Positions 1-9,774 are shown, numbered from the stretch's first letter. The stretch is 13,357 bases of DNA from Candidatus Eiseniibacteriota bacterium (GCA_043810925.1 JBDRNT010000144.1:1-13357), one strand, 5' to 3'. Notes: a model not told the origin generated them from the letters alone. Program-made: numbers and translations.

Positions 1-135
1 AAGGCAGATCTGTTCGATTACATCGAGATGTTCTATAATCCGAGACGTCGTCATAGCCACATCGGCGGCGTCAGTCCCGAGGTCTTTGAGCGGGCCTCAA
101 GCAAGGACCTGGTGGTGTCTACGAAACTGGGGTAA
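1..135 (+). CDS. IS3-family transposase OrfB, C-terminal end (partial; not in the ORF track)
   Basis: Frame 1 reads KADLFDYIEMFYNPRRRHSHIGGVSPEVFERASSKDLVVSTKLG*. This matches the typical IS3 OrfB C-terminal motif YIExFYNxxRxHSx(L/I)GxxSP. TAA at 133-135. Confidence 0.9.
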   Translation, partial: KADLFDYIEMFYNPRRRHSHIGGVSPEVFERASSKDLVVSTKLG

Positions 136-140
136 GTCCA
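1..140 (+). mobile_element. IS3-family insertion sequence, right end; right inverted repeat approx. 115-140
   Basis: The transposase stop lies inside GTGTCTACGAAACTGGGGTAAGTCCA, which ends in the 3'-CA typical of IS3 ends. The left IR and target duplication are outside the window. Confidence 0.8.
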
Positions 141-466
141 AGACGATCTGTCAGGTTACCGGCAAAGCGCCTCGCACGGTAGCGGAGTACCTGGTGATCG
201 TTGAGCATTATCAATCGGAGTTGGTGGGCAAGGATCATCGAGACTGGCTTATGAACCGCCGTAAGAAGGTCGGGACCGTGAGATTCTTGCCGGCGGAAAC
301 GATGGCTCCGATGGTTACTGCCCTCGAAAAAGGAGGGTCTACGGTATCGCGTAAGGAAGAGATTGTTGCTCCTGGAGACTCTGGTGAGGTCGATTCCAAA
401 GGCGACGCCACATCTAGAGGCCGAACGAGGGCAAAGAGGGCTCCGAAGCCAAGGAGAAAGAAGTGA
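141..466 (+). pseudogene. 3' remnant of a gene interrupted by the IS3 element; HTH-like segment resembling DUF1670-type C-termini
   Basis: An open frame continues from the IS end: TICQVTGKAPRTVAEYLVIVEHY..., then a low-complexity basic tail. The ORF-track start at 86 lies inside the IS. The family resemblance is by eye only. Confidence 0.45.
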
Positions 467-541
467 TCAAGAATCACTCACCGGACATATGGCCTAATAG
501 TAGATAGTACCTGGGTTGACCGAGCAACCTATCTGAACAGC

Positions 542-1012
542 TCAACCCTCTTCTTCTGTGGGAGCTGTGCTGGCATCGCCTGTGTCTCCTACCTTGTTTT
601 TCAGCCTGCCACTGCTGTCAACGTCTCTCCACTCAAAGATTACCCTGGGCCGTTCATCCGGGTCCTCTTGGCGTAAGAACTCCTCGAGCCTGATTAGCCT
701 GTCCAGGTCTGTGATGGTTGGTTTCACCTTACCCTCGGCAATAGCCTGTGCGACTTTGATGAGCCCCATCTCCACTATCTTACGGTTTCTGGCAGCCCTT
801 TCAACTCCGTCGCTGAGGCTCTGATCTGCCATGCTCCGTGCGACCTCCCCGTCTCTTTCTCCTACTCGCCGCTTCCAGCCGAATGACCTGCCCCAGAGCT
901 TCACGGCGGCGATCGACATACCGAACTCTTTGGCAACCTTGCTGTAGCTCCTGCCCTCGCCAATGCCGTAGTAGAATTCGAATGCCTTCTTGTGATGCTC
1001 CAGCTCATTCAA
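542..1012 (-). CDS. HTH DNA-binding protein, terminase small subunit-like (copy A)
   Basis: N-terminal AFEFYY...RSYSKVAKEFGMSIAAVKLWGRSFGWKRRV HTH followed by a helical region and DLDRLIRLEEFL. TTG start overlaps the upstream stop (TTGA) with a GAGGTG RBS. Paralog of 2480-2914. Confidence 0.65.
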   Translation of the reverse strand: MNELEHHKKAFEFYYGIGEGRSYSKVAKEFGMSIAAVKLWGRSFGWKRRVGERDGEVARSMADQSLSDGVERAARNRKIVEMGLIKVAQAIAEGKVKPTITDLDRLIRLEEFLRQEDPDERPRVIFEWRDVDSSGRLKNKVGDTGDASTAPTEEEG

Positions 1013-1341
1013 CGGGTAGTCACCTCACTTACGTAAACCCGGGCGATCTCCACGAGCGCCTTGCCCCTTGTGATGCCACCGTTGCGCTGTGACGCCTCTT
1101 CCATGGCCCTCTCGACCGTTTCCACGTCCTCTACCACGAATGAGAGAATGTGGGGCCGTTCACGCTCAGCCCTCTCAACCTCCTCATTTAGGTAAGCCTC
1201 CAGGCCATCCGGGATCTTCATGAGATCGAGCGCATCCTTAAGCTCTGCTTCAGAGTAGGGGAGCTGCGATTCGAGGTCTGCCAGCGTCAGCTCTTGGCTC
1301 AGGTCGTGGATCAGCTCGGACAAAAGAACCGAAACGGAAGT
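1009..1341 (-). pseudogene. Truncated ParB-like gene: C-terminal domain only (copy A)
   Basis: About 85% amino-acid identity (16 differences in 104 aa by manual alignment) to the C-terminal half of 2911-3540. Homology starts at SVSVLLSELIHDL, with an in-frame stop a few codons upstream and no ParB N-domain. It could still be translated from TTG 1323. Confidence 0.75.
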
Positions 1342-1382
1342 GTCCTGGTATCAGCAGAAGCAGACCTGACCACACCAAGCCG

Positions 1383-2045
1383 CTACTTGATGATTACGGC
1401 CTTCATGCCCCTGCTTGCCCCTCCGGTGTGCACCAGCTGATAGAAGTACACCCCGGGCGGCAGCTGATTGCCCTCGTTGTCGAGCCCATCCCACGTGACG
1501 CTCATACGAATTGGTCCCAAGTCTCCGATCATGACAGTTCTAACCACCCGACCTTGTGCATCAACGATCGAGATGCGAGCATCGGTGATGGATTCATTAG
1601 TGATGATAGGAATTGCGGTCGATGGGTAGAACGGATTGGGGCAATTCTGACGTAGTGGGGCAACCAAGACCCCAGAGGGTTCCTCAGGCATTCCGGCAAT
1701 CCACGGAGGTTGCGACTCCCGCCACTCCTCACCTCCCGGCGCAACGTACCAGAACGACCCGTTTCTTGTTATCAAGTACTTGCTATAGATCCATTCGAGG
1801 CTGTCTACCGGGACAACAGTGAAGGACCCACCATCCTCCCATTGCTCGGCCTGTCGCAAGAAGCGCCACAGATGACCGTCGGTGGTCAAGATCACAAATG
1901 CTTCCAGATCGTCACGCTGCCAGGTCGCGATCACGCCAGACTCCGCGTCTTGATGCACATAGCCAGCCTGGACAATCTCACAGAGTGCTCCTGCAATCAC
2001 CATAGTAACGGCCACAACCAAGCAAGCGATCTTAACGATTCTCAT
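1383..2045 (-). CDS. Secreted protein with C-terminal FlgD-Ig / T9SS type A-like sorting domain
   Basis: ATG 2045 follows AAAGGAGG. Signal-peptide-like N-terminus MRIVKIACLVVAVTMVIAGALCEIVQA. C-terminal QNCPNPF...GRVVRTV...TWDGLDNEGNQLPPGVYFYQL...KAVIIK. Confidence 0.8.
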   Translation of the reverse strand: MRIVKIACLVVAVTMVIAGALCEIVQAGYVHQDAESGVIATWQRDDLEAFVILTTDGHLWRFLRQAEQWEDGGSFTVVPVDSLEWIYSKYLITRNGSFWYVAPGGEEWRESQPPWIAGMPEEPSGVLVAPLRQNCPNPFYPSTAIPIITNESITDARISIVDAQGRVVRTVMIGDLGPIRMSVTWDGLDNEGNQLPPGVYFYQLVHTGGASRGMKAVIIK

Positions 2046-2210
2046 GGCATCCCCTCCTTTGCGAAACCAGCTCCGGTTTGATTGCCACATTAATCCGCAG
2101 CCCCATTGGCGCGGTGCGAAGCATACACCCCAGCCATGGCTTATGTGGTCTCACCATAACTGGAGTTAACTGGCATTTGAGCCGGATAATACCCGTGAGT
2201 CTACTCTGTA

Positions 2211-2239
2211 CAACTACCACACTTCCGAGCACTTGTCAA
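2211..2239 (-). promoter_or_regulatory. Possible sigma70 promoter for the secreted cargo gene
   Basis: Minus strand TTGACA-17 nt-TAGTTG with a TG extended -10 dinucleotide. The -10 box is imperfect. Confidence 0.35.
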
Positions 2240-2479
2240 TCCATCTCGCACATATCCAGAGCATTACCCGGCCCCCATGATCACCCGCCCCAAGCTTCTA
2301 TTGGCCTTCGCCGGCCGAAACATCTGATGCGTGAGAAGTCAATCCTTGGTGCAGAACCGGCCGCCCAGTAAGCAAGCATCTGGCTCCAGGCTTTGTCCGC
2401 GTGATGCCTCTCATTCCTGGCCGCGTCGTACCTCGTTCAGTCGGCCTACCTGAACCAACCGGATCGAATGCACATCTCG

Positions 2480-2914
2480 TTACGTGTAACCTTGGCCCTT
2501 TTGGCGAGCAGCATACCGCCGCTTAATCTGCTCCAGCAGTGACCCTTCTCCCTCTGGGGCAGTCGCACCTCTTCTCAGGAACTCCTCAAGCCTCACGAGC
2601 CTATCGAGATCGGAAATGGTCGGCTTGACCTTGCCTTCCGCGATTGCCTTGGCAACCTGGATGAGGCCCATCTCAACGATCTTGCGGTTCCGAGCTGTCT
2701 TCTCACTGGAGCTCTTGAGGTTATCGTCAGCCATCGCCCTTGCCGCATCGGCGTCTCTTTCCCGGACCCGATCCCTCCAGCCGAAGCTCTTGCCCCACAC
2801 CTTGACAGTGGCCAGTGACACCCCGAATTCTTGAGCCACCAACTTGTAGCTCCGGCCTTCGCCAAGTCCGTAGTAGAACTCAAATGCCTTCCTGTGGTGT
2901 TCTTGCTCTATCAA
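2480..2914 (-). CDS. HTH DNA-binding protein, terminase small subunit-like (copy B)
   Basis: AFEFYYGLGEGRSYKLVAQEFGVSLATVKVWGKSFGWRDRV HTH. It sits after the MTase and ParB genes, as TerS often does in phages. TTG start is coupled to the ParB stop. Confidence 0.65.
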   Translation of the reverse strand: MIEQEHHRKAFEFYYGLGEGRSYKLVAQEFGVSLATVKVWGKSFGWRDRVRERDADAARAMADDNLKSSSEKTARNRKIVEMGLIQVAKAIAEGKVKPTISDLDRLVRLEEFLRRGATAPEGEGSLLEQIKRRYAARQKGQGYT

Positions 2915-3540
2915 CTGGCGCTCACCTCGCTCACGTAGGCCCGGGCGATCTCCACCAGAGATTTGCCCCTTGTGAGGCCACCGTTGGCCTGTGAGGCCTT
3001 TTCTATGGCCTTCTCGACCGTTTCCACGTCCTCAACCACAAACGAGAGAATATGGGGCCTTTCCCGCTCCGCCTTCGCTACTTCCTCGTCCAGGTAGGCT
3101 TCCAGTCCATCGGGGATCTTCATGAGCTCGAGGGCGTCTTTGAGCTCGGCCTCGCTGTATGGAAGCTGCGATTCCAGGTCGTCGAGCGTCAACTCTTGGC
3201 TCAGGTCGTGCACGAGTTCGGAGAGCAATGACGACACGCTCTGCCCCTTCATTTCGTTCAAGTTGACTGAGAGTATTTTAGCCCTCCGATCATCGAGGTC
3301 GACCACGGCACAGGGGACCGTTTCATAGCCCAAGTCCCTGGCAATCTTCCACCGGTGATAGCCGCCGAGAATCTGATAACCGTCACCAAGGCATCTAACG
3401 ACAATCGGCTCAACCAGCCCCTCGCGCTTCACGTACTGCTTGAGTTTGTAGTACATCTCCTCCGACATGCGGTTGGGATTCCACGCGTTCGGTTGGAGCT
3501 TCCCAACCTCGATCTCTTCAAGTTCAAATGCCTTTCCCAT
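2911..3540 (-). CDS. ParB/Sulfiredoxin N-terminal domain protein
   Basis: LQPNAWNPNRM...GLVEPIVVR...YQILGGYHRWKIARDLGYETVP is a ParB/Srx fold signature with a GxHR motif. ATG 3540 is preferred because GGAGG lies 8 nt upstream; alternative starts are 3546 and 3549. Confidence 0.88.
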   Translation of the reverse strand: MGKAFELEEIEVGKLQPNAWNPNRMSEEMYYKLKQYVKREGLVEPIVVRCLGDGYQILGGYHRWKIARDLGYETVPCAVVDLDDRRAKILSVNLNEMKGQSVSSLLSELVHDLSQELTLDDLESQLPYSEAELKDALELMKIPDGLEAYLDEEVAKAERERPHILSFVVEDVETVEKAIEKASQANGGLTRGKSLVEIARAYVSEVSAS

Positions 3541-3545
3541 CCTCA

Positions 3546-4562
3546 TCACCTCCCAACTATTAGAAACTCCCGGTTACTACCCCGCTTCTCCTCACTGCTT
3601 AAGCCCGTCAGGTGCGCATAGGCGATCTCCTCGGCGTGCACGACCTCTTTGAACCTGCCAACTAGCTCCACCAGCGTCTCAAGCCCGATCGCTGCGTTGC
3701 CGTATGACACGATCCACAGGGGGAACTTCTGGCTGGCATCGAATAACCTCTCCAGAACCTCTATGGCCCCCGCCTTGCTGAAGGCACTCGCATCATCCCT
3801 GACCATCTTGCCCGATAGAATACAGTCCAGTGCCCTCAGGGATGTCTCGTAGGCCGAGGTGCCGGCATACGGTGGATCGAGATACAGAATGTCGCCGTCC
3901 ATCTGGTCGAGGAACTTAAAGACGTCTAGCTGGTGCACTTCGTTTTGCCGGCCGTTGGAGAAAATACCGGCGTTGATCTGCTTCCGCAAAGTCTCCGCCA
4001 CAGCCCTGGGGTGACCGGCGACGTTGCGTGAGAGCATGTCCTTGAGGTAATTGGGATTCATCTCCTCCCACTTCTCATCCTCTGCTTGCTTGATAATTGT
4101 CTTAGCTCCGAAGTTGCCCATGGGTCTCATCCGCAGGACGTACTTGGTAAGAAGCAGCAACAGGAGCCAGTGCTTGACTCCTTCAACCCTACGAGCCACA
4201 GCGAACGCATTATCAAGGAACCGGGCATGCTTCGTGGTTACGACCGACCTTGCGAAGTTCTGCTCAATGAAGCCGGTGTTGCCTGCATCCTCAACGAACA
4301 GCCGGGTCAGATCCTCGGGGTCCAGGGTCACATGGTCGTTCTCGATAAGGGCCCGACCCACAAGGCAGCTCCGGAAGGCAATGTCGTTGGCTACAACTCT
4401 GTAACCCCGTGCCTTACCAAACAGCGACACTGAGCCTCCACCCAGGAAGGCATCCACCAGCACCGGCGCCTCGCTGGGTCTAGGCATCTGCTTGAAGATC
4501 CTTCCCAACAGCTTCCGCTTGCCCCCGAAGTAAGGAGGCAAGGCTCTCAGTCTACCCCACAT
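3546..4562 (-). CDS. DNA N6-adenine methyltransferase, D12/Dam-like class
   Basis: PYFGGK (motif X), DAFLGGGSV (SAM-binding motif I), VVAND, and catalytic YLDPPY (motif IV) in alpha-group order. GGAGGT RBS. Confidence 0.92.
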   Translation of the reverse strand: MWGRLRALPPYFGGKRKLLGRIFKQMPRPSEAPVLVDAFLGGGSVSLFGKARGYRVVANDIAFRSCLVGRALIENDHVTLDPEDLTRLFVEDAGNTGFIEQNFARSVVTTKHARFLDNAFAVARRVEGVKHWLLLLLLTKYVLRMRPMGNFGAKTIIKQAEDEKWEEMNPNYLKDMLSRNVAGHPRAVAETLRKQINAGIFSNGRQNEVHQLDVFKFLDQMDGDILYLDPPYAGTSAYETSLRALDCILSGKMVRDDASAFSKAGAIEVLERLFDASQKFPLWIVSYGNAAIGLETLVELVGRFKEVVHAEEIAYAHLTGLSSEEKRGSNREFLIVGR

Positions 4563-6571
4563 TTAGGATCACCTCCATTTCCGTTACCGTTCTTCTTGCC
4601 GAATATGTGGTCGACCACGTGCTGCGCAAAGATCTCTGCACACGCCCGGCCCCGCTCACCATCAAACTCGCTGATCGCTGCTCTTTCTTCAAAGAGCTCT
4701 CGATATTCATCTGGCCAGTCTTCCACATTGGCTGGCAGCATGCGTCGCCTCAATGCCCTGACGATTCGATCGTCTACCCGCGACGGTATTGGACCGGTAG
4801 AGACGATATTGTCTGAAATACCGTCTCGGTCCTTGCCGTTGCAACCACTTGAATCAGAGGCAGTTAACTGAGGGGAGACGGTATAGACGGTTTTGACGGT
4901 ATTCTCGGTATTCCTTCCGGGTCTTATATACTCCTTTTCTTTTTTCCTGCCTTCAACAGTAGGAGAAATACCGTCAATATCGTCTCCGATACTGAAACTC
5001 CTTGTATCACCAGCAGTTACGCGAGACGATATTGCTGACGATACCGTCTCAATACCGTCGTTACCGTCTCCATCTGAGCGGGGTGAATCCTGAGCAGTGA
5101 CTCTCGATAGCCGTACGCACCTCCGCTGGCCACCGGGCTCTCTCTGGAATCTGATCCCAACTGCCTCCAGATCCGGGACAAGCTCCTTCAAGCGACGAGT
5201 CAGTGCATTCGCAGCCTTCGGCCACCGCTTCACATCCGTGCTGATACCTCGTGCCGCCGCAACCGATTCTAGTTCCGTCAGCAGTTCAGTGGGCTCTCCC
5301 TCCCATACTGGTTGATCTTCCATGAATGCTATAACCAACATTGCCACCGGACTGTTGTCCAGTGCCTCCATGTGCCTGAGGGCGGTATTGTCCTCGTAGG
5401 CAGACAGGAACGCGTCCTGCGTCCACCCAAGCGCAACCGCAATCGCGCAACCCCACGCCGCGAAGTCAGCCATTCGTGGGTTGCGCGACAATCTTATCGA
5501 GCTGCGAATCGCCATGGCCTGTGCCAGGACCGTGAACATCCCTGAGGCAAGTCCGGGCAAGGCGTTCTCGAACTCAGGCCACAACTCTTCTTCTGGCCTG
5601 CACTGCTTCTCACTTATGCGCTCTAATCCGACCACGAGACACCGGTCCAGCAGATCGGGTTGATAGGCCGCAACATTGACACCGCCGAGTCCCACGCAGC
5701 GTCGGAAGCTGTAGATCACATCGTCATCGTCCGTGTACAATCGTCTCTTCGAGAAGCCGTCGCCCGTCACAGCCCGACAGATAGCATCACTGACCCACTG
5801 CGGCAACGTGTGCACGTTGTCAAAAAACGGTGCCCAATGATGGGAGAACTGCTGGACGAGTTCGCTCCCGTCTCGAGTCATCGTGAGCACCTCAGTAGTT
5901 GAGGGATCAATGAGTCGTCGAGCCATCCGGAGTGCCGTGGTCTTCGCCGATCCCTGCGGGCCATGCAGCACAAGAACCGGGTGCGGTATATCCGGAACGA
6001 GGCAGCTCACGAGCCAGACCAGAAGGAACATGCCCTGGGTTTCATCTCTGATATTGATGTAATGCAGAAGACCTTTGAGGTCACCGCTGTAGCGTAACGG
6101 TTCCACCTGCGGCCTTTGGTGGGAGAAGCGCCGGAAGAGGATCGGGGGGGGCTCTATTACGTCCCAGGTGCCGGGGATTATCTTTACAGCTCGCCACTCG
6201 GAATCCCCGAGGTCATACCAGATCGCTCCATCGGCCCTTGCAACCCTGTTGTCCAGTCTGTAGGCCTTACCATCAAACCTTGCCTTGGCCCTGAGCACAC
6301 CGAGCGCGGAGTTAAGAGCCTCCGAGCCTACCGGATTTGTGTCCTTGGTCCATGCCAATCGGGCCAGCCAGTCTTTGAACTGCTCGCTCCGGCACGACCA
6401 GATCTCGTAGCGTCCATCGATAGGAATTCTGACATAGGCCTCCCTCTTCTCGTCGTGGAAGAGGGTTACATCTTCCTTCGAGATCAGGGTGAGTATTCGC
6501 TTCGCAGGTGATTTCTGCCGTCTCTGTGTCTTGCCCTTTGCGTTACCGCCATCCTTGTCTGATGTCTTCAT
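4547..6571 (-). CDS. Mobile-element replication protein: P-loop ATPase/helicase of the phage/satellite primase-associated type, without a recognisable primase domain
   Basis: Walker A VLHGPQGSAKTT, Walker B-like PFFDNV, AVTGDGFSKRRLYTDDD and DLLDR. A winged-helix-like WEGEPTELL...WPKAANALTRRLKE segment and a C-terminal FEERAAISEFDG motif follow. ATG 6571 follows GGGAGGTG. Confidence 0.75.
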   Translation of the reverse strand: MKTSDKDGGNAKGKTQRRQKSPAKRILTLISKEDVTLFHDEKREAYVRIPIDGRYEIWSCRSEQFKDWLARLAWTKDTNPVGSEALNSALGVLRAKARFDGKAYRLDNRVARADGAIWYDLGDSEWRAVKIIPGTWDVIEPPPILFRRFSHQRPQVEPLRYSGDLKGLLHYINIRDETQGMFLLVWLVSCLVPDIPHPVLVLHGPQGSAKTTALRMARRLIDPSTTEVLTMTRDGSELVQQFSHHWAPFFDNVHTLPQWVSDAICRAVTGDGFSKRRLYTDDDDVIYSFRRCVGLGGVNVAAYQPDLLDRCLVVGLERISEKQCRPEEELWPEFENALPGLASGMFTVLAQAMAIRSSIRLSRNPRMADFAAWGCAIAVALGWTQDAFLSAYEDNTALRHMEALDNSPVAMLVIAFMEDQPVWEGEPTELLTELESVAAARGISTDVKRWPKAANALTRRLKELVPDLEAVGIRFQREPGGQRRCVRLSRVTAQDSPRSDGDGNDGIETVSSAISSRVTAGDTRSFSIGDDIDGISPTVEGRKKEKEYIRPGRNTENTVKTVYTVSPQLTASDSSGCNGKDRDGISDNIVSTGPIPSRVDDRIVRALRRRMLPANVEDWPDEYRELFEERAAISEFDGERGRACAEIFAQHVVDHIFGKKNGNGNGGDPKCGVD
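4782..5068. repeat. Iteron array (GACGRTAT and reverse complement), putative replication origin inside the rep gene
   Basis: Forward copies or variants at 4782, 4802, 4877, 4886, 4895, 4904, 5025 and 5037. Reverse copies at 4818, 4968, 4977, 5041, 5052 and 5061. AT/pyrimidine-rich tract at 4924-4946. Confidence 0.8.
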
Positions 6572-6713
6572 ATTCCACCACACCTCCCAACCCGTTCGCC
6601 GTGGCTTCCCCTGAAGTCACAGTCTGCCTGTCATTGCTCATACCCATTCTCATACCCTCTCGCCGAAATGAAAGAGAAAGGATATCTCATGTAGTGGCCT
6701 GTCCCGTAAGGCT

Positions 6714-6824
6714 TTACACGCCTGCAGGAACCAGCGCACTACCCTGGCGTTCGAACTGGATGTCGATGACATCTATGGGTGGGAAATGAGTCTTTTGGTG
6801 TTCATATCGGGCCCCCGCTACCAT
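6714..6824 (-). other. 36-codon frame crossing the att site (MVAGARYEHQKTHFPPIDVIDIQFERQGSALVPAGV*): small ORF or attP-form C-terminal tail
   Basis: Translated by hand from the reverse complement. GGGAGG lies 9 nt upstream of the ATG, and TAA is at 6714-6716. Confidence 0.35.
6800..6823 (+). other. Attachment site: duplicated 3' fragment of an initiator tRNA-Met-like gene
   Basis: GTTCATATCGGGCCCCCGCTACCA resembles the tRNA-fMet 3' end GTTCAAATCCGGCCCCCGC(A/T)ACCA. The 5' half of the tRNA is absent. It lies at the switch from mobile-element genes to host genes. Confidence 0.75.
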
Positions 6825-6960: not shown

Positions 6961-9774
6961 ATGCGGGCTGGATTCATCTTTGTATTCCTTGGGATCCTTT
7001 CCATAGCTGTGGCAGCATTTGCGGGTGCTAATCAGTACGCCAAGGTCGCCGTTCACGTCCTGCCACACATACCGAGAACCTGTGCGGATGGTGTTCCTGC
7101 GGTCAGTCAATGCACGGACATAATCTACACGGAGCCAAGCTCCGATGTGAACTTTTTCCCCCTATTCTTCGACCTCGTTGAATACCAGGGATTCGACTAC
7201 GGGATAACCTGGCCAGGCTCTGGGAGTTGCGTTTTCACAAGCTGTAGCGATCTTACCATAGGGAGCATTGTGGCACCCGGTGACTGGGTGGCTCACGCCT
7301 GGGCCACTTGCCAGCCAGGGCCTATTGCGATCCCGGGCTGGGGATGGATAAGCGACCAGGGGCAGGTGTGCATAATCCCTCGTCCCGGAGCGATCACAGT
7401 CAACATTGGCGACTGCTCCTCAGGGAACGATGCCCCGATTCAAGCCTTCTGCTGCGGCATTGGCGGGAGCGAAGGTGAAAATCCGTGCCAGGAACCACCG
7501 CCGGCCTGTGAGGTACGGCCAGCGACCCTGGATTTCGGCATTGTCGGCGTAGGATATGCCGCGGAACAAACGTTCACGGTCAGAAACACCGGGGGCGGCC
7601 TCTTGCGAGGTGAAATCGGCGAGGATTGTGCGGGATTCACTATCACTTCGGGTAGCGGGTTGTATGCCTTGGTGGGTGATGATTCAGTGGTGGTGACGAT
7701 TCGATTTGAGCCGGAGCTCTCAGGTCCCCATGAGTGCGTCATAGACACCGACGTCAGCTGTGCCGATGTAGTATGCGTGGGCATCGGCGCTCCCCCGCCT
7801 GTATGCATGCTCGCGCCGACCAGTCTGGACTTCGGTACAGTGTTCATCGGTGAGTTCTCGGACCATACATTCGCAATTCGGAACCTCGGGGGCAGCGCTC
7901 TCGCCGGCGAGGTCACGGAGGCATGCGCGCCCTACAGTATTGAATCAGGGGCAGGGCCGTATAATCTAGAACCTGATGATTCGGTGGTCGTGACGGTCCG
8001 GTTTGCCCCCACGGTACCGGGTGAGTATCCTTGCTCAGTGGCCGCGGGAGTAGACTGCCCAGCAGTCTTGTGCACAGGGATCGGGGAGCCCCTGCCGCTG
8101 TGTCTGGTTACGCCTGCAATGCTGGATTTTGGGACAGTCACACTGGGTGAGCCGCCAGTTGATACGTCATTTGTGATCTTGAATGCCGGAGGGGGCACTC
8201 TCACCGGCCATGTGGCGGAGACTTGTGGTCATTACAGCATCCTGGCAGGGGCGGGACCATACAACCTTGGCGCGGGTGAAACGGTAACCGTCACAGTCCG
8301 CTTTGAGCCACAATCGGCAGGGACTCACACATGCGAGATATCAACGGGACAAGGCTGCGACCAGCTGACATGCACCGGCATAAGTGTGAAGCCACCCGCT
8401 TGTAAGGTATGTCCCGCCAACCTGGACTTCGAGACTATACTGACAGGGGAGCATCGTGATCTTGGGGTGACCCTGAAGAGCGTCGGCTTGGATACACTCA
8501 CGGGCTTCATCAGCGCGACTTGCGACGAGTACAGCATTCAGGCAGGTGGTGGAAGCTACTGGCTGCCACCGGGTGATTCTGTGGCATTGACAGTCCGGTT
8601 TCAGCCTGACTCTTGTGGTTTGAGCACGTGCACCATCGCAACAGGGAGCAGCTGTGACGACATCGAGTGCGTGGGAGTAGCCGATGGTGTCTGTAGACCG
8701 CTTGTACTGGACAAGCAGGATGACGTGGGTATATGCACCGACCCGGGCAGTACAGTTGCATTCACCCTGTCGTACAGGAACACCAATCCTCTGCCGGCAA
8801 CCGGCGTCACCCTCGCAGACCGCTTGCCCGCTGAGATGCAGTTCTTGGCCGCAACCGGCGGGGGGGCATACGATCCCGTTGCTCATGATATCACCTGGGA
8901 TATCGGAACACTCGACGCCGATGCCTCGGGATCCGTCGGGCTGCTGGTTGAGATAGATCTATCAGCACCGGCAGAGATCACACTTACAGACACGTGCACC
9001 GTCTTCTGCAACGAGATGGGGCCAACGGATGCTCGGGAGGATACCGACGTATGCGGAGTTGAGATCCCCGTCTACGTAGACATCAGGCCCAGAATGTGCC
9101 CCAATCGGTTGGTACTGGATAGTCCGCTCATGCTCCTTGTGACCATACTGGGTGAGGCCGATCGTAGCGTCCGGGATATTGATGTCCCCACGCTTCGTCT
9201 CTCCCGCGAAGGCTTGACAGCCAGCCTTGCCCCCTCCGGATGGATCTACGAAGACGCGGCCACACCATTCACAGACAATCTGTGCGGCTGTCACAAACTC
9301 GGTGCGGATGGTTTTGAGGATCTGAAGATCAGGCTCCCGATACCGGATGTGGCATCGGTTCTCGAATTGGCAGGCCTGGAACATCAGGCGGTAACTCTCG
9401 TCATTAATGGGAATCTCGCCGGCGGAGAGCCGGTATCAGGCCGGGATTGTATTGTTGTGGAGGGGGAGAGCTTTGATGTAAGCGGCGACGGCATCGGGTT
9501 CGGCCCAAGCAGCCGAAGGCACACGGGCGGGGGCCAGATCGTTCTGACTTTCCATACATCCTCGCAGGACCTTGTGGTACTTGAGATCTTTGACGTGCGC
9601 GGTCGAGCTGTGAGGACTCTCGTTAACGAAACGAGGATGCCGGGGTCTCATGTGGTTACCTGGGACCTGAATGACGACAGGGGTTCTGCCGTCCCCACGG
9701 GCATCTATTTTGCCTGCCTGCGTGACAGCCAGCAGAGTCGCACTCAGAAAATTATACTCCTGGGCTCCCGCTAG
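6961..9774 (+). CDS. Large Cys-rich secreted protein: four choice-of-anchor-D/ASH-like Ig repeats, a DUF11-like domain and a C-terminal FlgD/T9SS-like domain
   Basis: Signal peptide MRAGFIFVFLGILSIAVAAFA. Repeats PxxLDFG...F.(I/V).N.GG..L.G...V.VRF.P. DUF11-like FTLSYRN...ATGVTLADRLP...ITWDIGTL. C-terminal LEIFDVRGRAVRTL...TWD...G..VPTGIYF...QKIILL. Confidence 0.85.
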   Translation: MRAGFIFVFLGILSIAVAAFAGANQYAKVAVHVLPHIPRTCADGVPAVSQCTDIIYTEPSSDVNFFPLFFDLVEYQGFDYGITWPGSGSCVFTSCSDLTIGSIVAPGDWVAHAWATCQPGPIAIPGWGWISDQGQVCIIPRPGAITVNIGDCSSGNDAPIQAFCCGIGGSEGENPCQEPPPACEVRPATLDFGIVGVGYAAEQTFTVRNTGGGLLRGEIGEDCAGFTITSGSGLYALVGDDSVVVTIRFEPELSGPHECVIDTDVSCADVVCVGIGAPPPVCMLAPTSLDFGTVFIGEFSDHTFAIRNLGGSALAGEVTEACAPYSIESGAGPYNLEPDDSVVVTVRFAPTVPGEYPCSVAAGVDCPAVLCTGIGEPLPLCLVTPAMLDFGTVTLGEPPVDTSFVILNAGGGTLTGHVAETCGHYSILAGAGPYNLGAGETVTVTVRFEPQSAGTHTCEISTGQGCDQLTCTGISVKPPACKVCPANLDFETILTGEHRDLGVTLKSVGLDTLTGFISATCDEYSIQAGGGSYWLPPGDSVALTVRFQPDSCGLSTCTIATGSSCDDIECVGVADGVCRPLVLDKQDDVGICTDPGSTVAFTLSYRNTNPLPATGVTLADRLPAEMQFLAATGGGAYDPVAHDITWDIGTLDADASGSVGLLVEIDLSAPAEITLTDTCTVFCNEMGPTDAREDTDVCGVEIPVYVDIRPRMCPNRLVLDSPLMLLVTILGEADRSVRDIDVPTLRLSREGLTASLAPSGWIYEDAATPFTDNLCGCHKLGADGFEDLKIRLPIPDVASVLELAGLEHQAVTLVINGNLAGGEPVSGRDCIVVEGESFDVSGDGIGFGPSSRRHTGGGQIVLTFHTSSQDLVVLEIFDVRGRAVRTLVNETRMPGSHVVTWDLNDDRGSAVPTGIYFACLRDSQQSRTQKIILLGSR
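7495..8685 (+). repeat. Four tandem ~99-aa Ig-like domain repeats
   Basis: Units start at 7495, 7792, 8089 and 8389 (periods 297, 297 and 300 nt), with conserved Cys spacing. Confidence 0.85.

Follow-up and report, generated by a model that had tools for sequence, protein, structure and literature searches.

The window, a 13,357-nt stretch of DNA that corresponds to one whole contig of a Candidatus Eisenbacteria MAG (3.85-Mb assembly, 91.7% complete), may carry at positions 2480-6823 the central part of a small mobile element that integrates, replicates itself and lacks a capsid, a phage satellite of PICI-like type, a reading to which we give a probability of roughly one half. Such an element probably travels in the capsids of another phage. 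Four minus-strand ORFs of 678, 338, 212 and 144 aa, with successive stop/start overlaps of 16, 4 and 4 nt, make up this core, and both the ORF calls and the Pfam and PHROG identities bore out the co-oriented, overlapping genes described in an earlier sequence-only reading. Downstream of the replication gene (rep), a D12-class N6-adenine DNA methyltransferase (3546-4562, minus strand; PF02086, 8e-20; phrog_27806, 2e-28) with a DPPY motif is followed by a protein with a ParB/Srx-type N-terminal domain (2911-3549, minus strand; PF02195, ParB_N, 1e-14; phrog_723, 3e-29) and a family-specific C-terminal domain. The last gene, terS1 (2480-2914, minus strand), encodes a homologue of the small terminase subunit (phrog_6299, 1e-19), which tblastn matched to genes annotated as TerS in Geobacillus phage TP-84, in Bacillus phages and in psiM2. 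Purifying selection on the core genes is shown by dN/dS values against relatives of 0.05-0.09 for the methylase and 0.06-0.09 for ParB, and of 0.05-0.2 across methylase, ParB, TerS, rep, TerL (large terminase) and recombinase, values that are rough because dS is near saturation. The 98 GATC sites of the window show neither clustering nor depletion within the element, and no cluster of methylation sites was found near terS.

The first gene of the operon, rep (4547-6583, minus strand), gave no match at all in Pfam or PHROG, and it was its homologues and its AF2 fold that indicated a D5-like SF3 helicase with the Walker A motif GPQGSAKT and without a primase domain. Its homologues number more than 1635, many of which also carry a fused primase domain (zf-CHC2/Toprim or Prim-Pol), and the AF2 model (pLDDT 69.8) resembles ASFV PrimPol and the SaPI5 primase-helicase 7ola, as well as poxvirus D5/E5 and SCCmec Cch. 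A sequence search of the PDB with the rep alignment matched the primase part alone, which is missing from the window protein, and was set aside. Inside the 3′ part of rep, a putative iteron-type origin (4782-5059) comprises 11 GACGGTATT-like words on both strands. Allowing one mismatch at most, GACGGTATT occurs 15 times against 1.83 expected, with 11 of the 15 occurrences gathered in these 278 bp, where they flank an AT-rich stretch at about 4925-4955 and where rep encodes a segment predicted to be disordered. This cluster supports the internal origin advanced from the sequence alone. SaPI origins likewise lie at the 3′ side of rep, and related iteron clusters, GTGACGNT, were seen at or just past the 3′ end of the rep homologue in the three loci examined (L010, L029 and L038). 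Elsewhere in the family, rep is swapped for RepO-like, D5-primase, AAA_25 or IstB-like genes.

At the rep side, a conserved att-like end block of 110 bp (6714-6823, plus strand) shows 92% identity at two sibling loci (C74, 342-451; C168, 1-64) and 78% identity to a metagenome locus (L102, 155-212). Its final 23 nt (6801-6823) lie upstream of rep, at a distance of 218 bp, and look like a tRNA-Met 3′ end. A distant genome (G020) has this 23-mer, with two mismatches, as the 3′ end of a real tRNA-Met(CAT), and again with two mismatches it recurs in a contig of the same genome as the window (C172), where it closes a gene for a large serine recombinase beside housekeeping genes, at a host junction. 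This recombinase and a tyrosine recombinase encoded on another contig of that genome (C24) are candidates for the integrase of the element. Of the tRNA att site previously placed about 230 bp from the operon, it is this tRNA-like 23-mer that stands, as ARAGORN and Rfam gave no tRNA gene either in the window or on related contigs of the genome. The assembly contains just two CAT-anticodon tRNAs, whose 3′ ends differ from the 23-mer, and none of the Eisenbacteria copies was found beside an intact tRNA, the opposite end of the element lying outside the assembled sequence. In a search for empty sites and orthologous flanks, the flanking genes of the window were not found beside the 23-mer copies in relatives.

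Downstream of terS1 there is a conserved 77-nt motif (2360-2436, minus strand), with copies on contig C31 at 5984-6060 (84% identity) and 777-853 (77%) that are direct and flank a 5-kb cargo block; its frame is kept in the three copies, which lack a start codon and have open frames of just 51-74 codons. A cargo gene follows (1383-2090, minus strand), whose secreted product has a C-terminal domain for type IX secretion (FlgD_ig, 4e-10; CHU_C; Por_Secre_tail), and then a second, partial ParB gene reduced to the C-terminal domain (1009-1323, minus strand; 83-87% protein identity to ParB residues 101-211; dN/dS 0.10) and terS2 (542-1012, minus strand), a second small terminase homologue (phrog_6299, 8e-15) 72% identical to terS1. 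The stretch formed by these two genes keeps 76% nucleotide identity to 2579-3222, and a similar ParB-C plus terS unit was found in another genome (G014:C60). Closest to the left end, and on the plus strand, lie the C-terminal 124 residues of a DUF1670 gene (92-466; 71% identity to residues 220-343 of the DUF1670 of C40), a type of gene for which tblastn gave nothing in the compared loci, viral or metagenomic, and the 3′ end of an IS3-family transposase orfB (1-135), 100% identical to 140-1 of contig C13, which encodes an HTH_Tnp_1 orfA and an rve orfB. With a secreted-protein gene, a second partial ParB-TerS set and IS3 after the core, the window copy is rearranged and incomplete. Neither Pfam nor PHROG detected a recombinase domain in any window ORF, and no ORF for an AlpA/Stl-type regulator was found in the window, where 218 bp separate rep from the rep-side end. 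Since the contig carries no integrase, repressor or excisionase and a partial duplication and IS3 follow the core, this copy may be immobile. The contig breaks at its left end because IS3 sits there. The genome as a whole holds at least three copies of the element, diverged and fragmented, one of which is in the window, and the overlaps between its contig ends form a tangled assembly graph where whole elements are not separable; among public sequencing data, one DNA run matched 6% of the sampled words, with contigs of 151-262 nt and no joints, no RNA run was listed, and neither excision nor a circular form nor encapsidation was seen.

The comparison set comprised 44 related loci, 35 with enough upstream sequence and 18 where the sequence runs on for 2 kb or more past terS. 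A ParB gene or a ParB-methylase fusion ends at most 150 bp before terS in 30/35 loci; methylase and ParB are separate genes in the window, and L029, L121 and L123 share a layout of ParB-methylase fusion, TerS and serine recombinase. The conserved unit is methylase-ParB-TerS, with an interchangeable rep gene, and the conservation of all four genes anticipated by the sequence-only reading did not hold. This capsid-less layout is repeated in dozens of independent metagenome loci with 45-70% protein identity, and the terS family was recovered from 41 metagenome loci, whereas IMG/VR was almost empty (4 weak loci). Within the phylum, the module was found in 5 of 18 Eisenbacteria genomes, with a patchy and multi-copy distribution, and the flanking sequence differs at every locus. 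Where both ends can be guessed, the elements measure about 8-12 kb; L105 has 60-nt repeats at 5722 and 13414, and the recombinase-to-TerL span of L113 is about 10.8 kb. Relatives carry sigma-like, XRE or ImmA-like genes, and the cargo of some loci includes TIR, PIN and helicase-nuclease genes.

A detailed view of the 18 loci downstream of terS shows a tyrosine recombinase in nine, TerL in six and a portal gene in none, with neither recombinase nor TerL in nine. In the nearest relatives, the tyrosine recombinase lies between terS and a genuine TerL (phrog_38, 4e-97); an apparent 400-aa gene at this place was discarded as an antisense ORF, the real gene being that of the recombinase (~290 aa) on the opposite strand. 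The TerLs of the elements are 70-83% identical among themselves and at most 51% identical to those of IMG/VR. Because close relatives own a genuine TerL, carrying TerS only is not a family trait, and the earlier observation that no TerL follows either terS copy, which holds for the window and the genome, is partly an assembly limit, as the window is a whole contig ending in IS3. Virion genes were found neither here nor in the related loci. No TerL, portal or capsid gene was found in the window, nor any match to phrog_38, PF03354, PF03237, PF05065 or PF04860 in the assembly, and the portal result (0/18) comes from one tblastn query over all 18 loci, while the family scans covered the longer loci, with no head or tail PHROG match in 61 flanking ORFs and no head or tail Pfam family among 110 ORFs of six long loci. 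As a control, the portal was the next ORF after the related TerL in 30/30 phage contigs tested (30 of 61 candidate ORFs). Cassettes always followed by TerL, portal and capsid genes are not the pattern of these 18 loci, where TerL appears in a third and the portal in none. A distant phage contig (L090) does show the order ParB-TerS-TerL-portal-minor capsid, and this operon gives the origin of the packaging module, which is phage-derived.

Under the satellite reading, induction would lead the helicase to fire the iteron origin; the element DNA would be marked by ParB and TerS, perhaps with the help of methylation, and a large terminase would then fill the procapsids of a helper phage with this DNA. 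The terminase would be that of the helper for the window element, and their own for the sister elements. The minimal satellite with TerS-directed packaging that was initially proposed is supported in part: it has in its favour the compact replicon and the phage-derived module, and against it the contig without integrase or regulator and the rearranged copy. The nine loci that show no recombinase and no TerL beyond terS also speak against the satellite reading.

In relatives, the cargo genes were seen in arrays, separated by 3′ fragments of terS. There are four such repeats of 300 nt in G008:C44 (72-82% identity), at least seven fragments in G008:C30 and three in G002:C65, and in L105 each of three cargo genes is followed by a copy of the TerL 3′ end. 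A tyrosine recombinase is found at the far end of the arrays, and IS91 Y2 transposases adjoin them in C40, from the genome of the window, and in G008:C44, where methylase-ParB-terS is kept and a recognisable rep gene is absent. A possible, if rather doubtful, explanation is that these elements act as gene-capture platforms, in which the tyrosine recombinase would insert single-gene cassettes, most of them secreted type-IX-secretion cargo, in the 3′ part of terS or TerL, leaving 3′ fragments and producing integron-like arrays on a capsid-less, terminase-encoding satellite. The resemblance to integrons that was seen is an outward one (a recombinase, and single-gene units with a repeated 3′ site), the recombinase being XerC/D-like according to Pfam. 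The cargo, with secreted surface proteins here and TIR or PIN proteins in relatives, suggests that ecologically relevant genes are moved in uncultured bacteria.

The modules embedded in the cargo arrays of G008 and G002, one of them without rep, give the look of a fixed chromosomal platform, rather than of a moving satellite, and it is conceivable, yet unlikely, that no packaging into capsids takes place and that the element as a whole is an integrative replicon or a platform for cassettes. The TerS-like protein, ParB and the methylase would then serve in DNA binding, partition and anti-restriction, and the element, or its cargo cassettes alone, would move by recombination at specific sites, by rolling-circle capture of the IS91 type, in vesicles or through conjugative mobilisation. 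Such a platform would account for the terS fragments between cargo genes and the threefold TerL end of L105, for the recombinase and IS91 transposases at the arrays and for the module of G008:C44 devoid of a recognisable rep gene, as well as for the presence of 2-4 terS genes in 11 loci, a number unusual for a factor that gives packaging its specificity. However, it has to face the clear homology of TerS to real phage TerS, a strongly conserved full-length TerL in six loci and the fact that the nearest complete context of the module is a phage packaging operon (L090). Moreover, we know of no role for a terminase motor beyond capsid filling, which we count against a platform that is never packaged.

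Another view would see in the locus what remains of a temperate phage that has lost its structural genes, namely its left arm with replication, methylase, ParB and TerS. The gene order of L090, the contig without integrase and a locus interrupted by IS3, by part of a gene and by an incomplete duplication are what a decayed prophage could leave, but the origin, the phage-derived module, the lack of virion genes in relatives and the purifying selection on every core gene argue together against decay. In addition, the recurrence of the capsid-less layout in so many independent and diverged loci, the contrast between 0/18 loci and 30/30 phage contigs in the portal search, a 3.85-Mb assembly free of structural-gene remnants and elements of just about 8-12 kb make this origin quite improbable. 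Very improbable as well is a domesticated host module, with methylase-ParB-TerS(-TerL) retained for a gene-transfer-agent-like or defence role and rep as a leftover, since the purifying selection, the presence in 5/18 Eisenbacteria genomes, well-assembled chromosomal contexts among them, and the TIR, PIN and helicase-nuclease cargo of some loci are outweighed by a patchy, multi-copy distribution, flanks that differ at each locus, recombinases and self-replication genes that travel along and a genome without capsid genes to build a transfer agent.

To our knowledge, good descriptions of phage satellites exist only for a small number of groups in culture. With PICIs and SaPIs, the element proposed here shares the small island, the SaPI5 Rep-like helicase fold and the origin at the 3′ side of rep. 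The PICI model of SatelliteFinder comprises an integrase at one end, an AlpA/Stl-type regulator placed between it and the replication module, a primase-replicase next to an origin and TerS, with no tail, holin, portal or head-tail genes (PMC10085698). The SF3 helicase with its iteron cluster (although the primase domain is missing), TerS as the last core gene, cargo after terS and the absence of tail, holin and portal genes agree with this scheme, while the window contig differs by having no integrase, AlpA/Stl-type regulator or capsid-morphogenesis gene. The family also departs from it in the methylase-ParB pair fixed before terS, in the full TerL of sister elements and in its integrases, which are large serine or XerC/D-like tyrosine recombinases. 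According to the same source, more than 99.9% of reported PICIs belong to Proteobacteria or Firmicutes, phyla outside which the Eisenbacteria host falls (PMC10085698). The TerL-bearing sister elements resemble cf-PICIs in owning TerS and TerL (PMC10085698; 10.1101/2022.09.08.507074), but what defines cf-PICIs are genes for capsid, portal and head-tail adaptor/connector (PMC10085698), and not one of these was found in the window, the genome or the related loci. A likeness is also found in VEIMEs, a broad class of marine virion-encapsidated integrative mobile elements of uncultured bacteria without capsid remodelling genes, which, in their main description, have tyrosine and/or serine recombinases, primase/helicases, TerS homologues and, in one of their modules, methyltransferases (PMC9618062). 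That main description, supplementary gene tables aside, includes neither a methylase-ParB-TerS triad nor TerL, and VEIMEs are defined by their presence inside particles (PMC9618062). No description of a methylase-ParB-TerS satellite was found in the parts of the literature covered, where the supplementary tables of PMC9618062 and PMC10085698 could hold such elements.

The methylase also recalls phage P1, in which adenine methylation of the pac site gates cleavage by the terminase, a likeness in idea; in the window, no cluster of GATC sites was found near terS. What the present proposal adds is a widespread satellite family, spread over environmental metagenomes and several phyla, with a fixed methylase-ParB-TerS core. 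Some of its members encode a complete terminase yet no capsid and, if the reading is true, would supply the packaging motor in full and take nothing but the shell from another phage. Finally, the same gene linkage is known in phages, and the family would allow a connection of ParB-type proteins and DNA methylation with the start of packaging to be tested.

The metagenome-assembled genome that holds the window comprises 185 contigs and 3.85 Mb at 91.7% completeness, and the window is the entire 13,357-bp contig C144. Four head-to-tail ORFs lie on its minus strand with successive overlaps of 16, 4 and 4 nt: rep (4547-6583), encoding 678 aa with the Walker A motif GPQGSAKT, a D12 N6-adenine methyltransferase (3546-4562), a ParB_N protein (2911-3549) and the TerS homologue terS1 (2480-2914; phrog_6299, 1e-19). 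The co-oriented, overlapping genes originally pointed out from the sequence are thus real, with methylase, ParB_N and TerS matched by Pfam and PHROG family searches, which returned no match for the rep product. The first gene downstream of the block (1383-2090) encodes a secreted protein bearing a type IX secretion tail, followed by a ParB C-terminal fragment (1009-1323) and, next to it, a second terS, terS2 (542-1012), this pair sharing 76% nucleotide identity with window 2579-3222. Beyond terS2 we find a DUF1670 gene fragment (92-466) and, at the left end, the final 135 nt of an IS3 orfB, the element that terminates the contig. To the right of 6823 come a 937-aa multi-Ig secreted protein, an M29 aminopeptidase and prolyl-tRNA synthetase.

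The 937-aa protein (6961-9774), immediately outside the element end, carries several HYDIN/ASH-type Ig domains, a DUF11 and a type IX secretion tail, and N-terminal regions paralogous to it occur on contigs C127, C161 and C91 of the same genome. On C40, also from this genome, a DUF1670 gene pair (2287-4130) adjoins terS remnants, and a fragment of one of these genes corresponds to window 92-466; no tblastn match to DUF1670 genes was obtained among the viral and metagenome loci compared. The 4.5-kb contig C32 of the same genome contains four consecutive tyrosine recombinase genes (2-3986). In another genome, G014, an ORF of 141 aa that has a start codon of its own codes for a ParB C-terminal domain alone and is followed by a terS (contig 60, 10171-11017), a unit resembling the partial ParB-terS2 unit of the window with breakpoints ~30 nt apart.

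The rep family is very large, with at least 1635 matches among the candidates scored, most homologues having an N-terminal primase domain (zf-CHC2/Toprim, Prim-Pol or DUF3854) and the window protein being without one. The nearest homologues that carry an organism name are consistent with Candidatus Eisenbacteria as the host. An AlphaFold model built on the homologue alignment (pLDDT 69.8) matched in structure comparison the ASFV PrimPol, the SaPI5 primase-helicase (7ola), poxvirus D5/E5, the NrS-1 helicase and SCCmec Cch, and for this reason the product is assigned, at the level of a predicted fold, as a D5-like SF3 replicative helicase. The origin that the sequence-only reading had placed within rep was borne out by an excess of iterons. 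Within 4782-5059, eleven GACGGTATT-like words on both strands surround an AT-rich stretch, in rep codons that correspond to a segment predicted to be disordered; in the whole window 15 such words were observed against 1.83 expected, a number reached in none of 200 shuffles. Related iterons (GTGACGNT) were clustered at or just past the rep 3′ end in the three homologous loci examined (L010, L029 and L038).

A search with the rep alignment revealed relatives encoded at 592 genome loci of bacteria and archaea. Among the 80 of these loci that were kept, terS was also present only in L010, L029 and L038, and methylase or ParB in five more, so that rep is best regarded, on its gene neighbourhoods, as a promiscuous module. 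The search with the TerS alignment gave four weak loci in IMG/VR and 41 in JGI metagenomes. In the 44 terS-bearing loci used for the synteny count, 11 of which carry two to four terS genes, the upstream test was restricted to the 35 having at least 300 bp upstream, and in 30 of them no more than 150 bp separate the first terS from the end of a ParB gene or of a ParB-methylase fusion. The four-gene synteny initially proposed is therefore conserved in its ParB-terS part, but not in rep, which is replaced from locus to locus by other upstream replication genes (Phage_rep_O, D5_N/Prim-Pol, AAA_25 or IstB-like). The fused layout is seen in L029, L121 and L123. On the far upstream side there are large serine recombinases with DUF2924, together with an XRE/ImmA-like pair in L029; in L118 a large serine recombinase is placed after terS. 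L090, the single phage-like contig carrying a distant TerS (36% identity), has the order ParB-TerS-TerL-portal-minor capsid, an operon that shows the origin of the module. Cargo adjoining related elements (L113, 13349-20350; L123, 1967-2545; L128, 17345-18529) resembles defence genes, and includes a 1195-aa helicase-PLD protein, TIR-domain proteins, a Metallophos and AAA_27 pair and a PIN_12 protein.

Regarding the tRNA att site of the sequence-only reading, no tRNA gene was found in the window, but a conserved end block stands in its place. Positions 6714-6823 are 92% identical to sequences at the sibling loci C74 and C168 of the same genome and 78% identical to the corresponding place in the metagenome locus L102. 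The block finishes in TTCATATCGGGCCCCCGCTACCA (6801-6823), a 23-mer that with two mismatches is a genuine tRNA-Met(CAT) 3′ end in a distant genome; variants with up to two mismatches were found in 7 of the 40 further genomes searched, and in Eisenbacteria never inside an intact tRNA. We infer that 6714-6823 is an att-type end. Contig C172 of the same genome has the 23-mer with two mismatches, there overlapping the 3′ terminus of a gene that encodes a large serine recombinase of 607 aa and is directly followed by the housekeeping genes GT2, MurJ and UvrC; the orientations fit C172 as the opposite end of an element of this kind, a candidate linkage. In place of rep, the end block is directly followed on C74, on C168 and on contig 65 of the sister genome G002 by a gene (1-288, 118-693 and 671-1132, respectively) whose 191-aa product belongs to no known family. 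Since this gene precedes a methylase fragment in G002, it may represent another module for replication or control.

Fragments of the terS 3′ end occur repeatedly in sister genomes, arranged in arrays with a spacing of 1-3 kb: four 300-nt repeats of 72-82% identity on contig 44 of G008 (7861-15233), at least seven fragments on its contig 30 and three on contig 65 of G002. Single cargo genes, encoding FGE-sulfatase/PKD proteins, a serpin and T9SS-tailed proteins, lie between the repeats, a tyrosine recombinase is found at the far end, and IS91-family Y2 transposase genes adjoin the arrays in two genomes (C40, 5882-7003; G008 contig 44, 18682-19485). The order terS1-cargo-partial ParB-terS2 of the window may be the same phenomenon, for which integron-like cassette capture, tandem integration followed by deletion, and IS91-type capture are candidate origins. 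Other repeats were also observed. In the locus L105 a 150-nt unit, made of the final 29 TerL codons and a sigma70-promoter-like 60-mer, recurs after each of two cargo genes (copies at 13324-13473, 15099-15247 and 16534-16683), and the 60-mer alone is present at 5722-5781, before a rubrerythrin gene on the other side of the element. Downstream of terS, a 77-nt motif (window 2360-2436; C31, 777-853 and 5984-6060) keeps in its three copies one reading frame (TRYD.ARNERH.ADK.WSQM..YWAA), with the start codon absent; the two direct copies on C31, from the same genome, bracket a 5-kb cargo block with an S8 protease.

Eighteen loci have 2 kb or more of sequence downstream of terS. A TerL follows in six of them, and it is genuine (phrog_38, 4e-97); a tyrosine recombinase is found in nine and a portal in none. 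(The interval from terS to TerL contains a tyrosine recombinase gene on the opposite strand, and an apparent 400-aa gene there was rejected as an artefact.) Pfam detected no head or tail families in the 110 ORFs taken from six long loci, nor did PHROGs in 61 further flanking ORFs. As a control, IMG/VR contigs encoding the related TerL were examined (75 loci, identity not above 51%), and the portal was the ORF directly after TerL in all 30 tested, the first 30 of 61 candidates. The genome of the window itself gave five terS matches on three contigs and none to phrog_38, TerL_ATPase, Terminase_6N, HK97 capsid or Phage_portal. Methylase, ParB, TerS, rep, TerL and recombinase showed dN/dS values of 0.05-0.2, also where the genes of the window were compared with copies from metagenomes and sister genomes; the values are approximate because dS is large. 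The layout common to the relatives joins a recombinase and cargo with modules for replication and for the initiation of phage packaging; recurrent, under selection, 8-12 kb long and free of virion genes, it agrees much better with a PICI-type phage satellite than with a prophage in decay. The window copy may be inactive, since it is rearranged and lacks integrase and regulator.

Compared with the SatelliteFinder families, as these are described in part of their source (PMC10085698), the nearest relatives of the present family carry a full TerL but neither portal nor capsid, and the methylase-ParB pair is fixed before terS. The same two features, the full TerL unaccompanied by portal or capsid in the nearest relatives and the fixed position of the methylase-ParB pair ahead of terS, set the family apart from the VEIMEs, to judge by the portion of their description considered here (PMC9618062).
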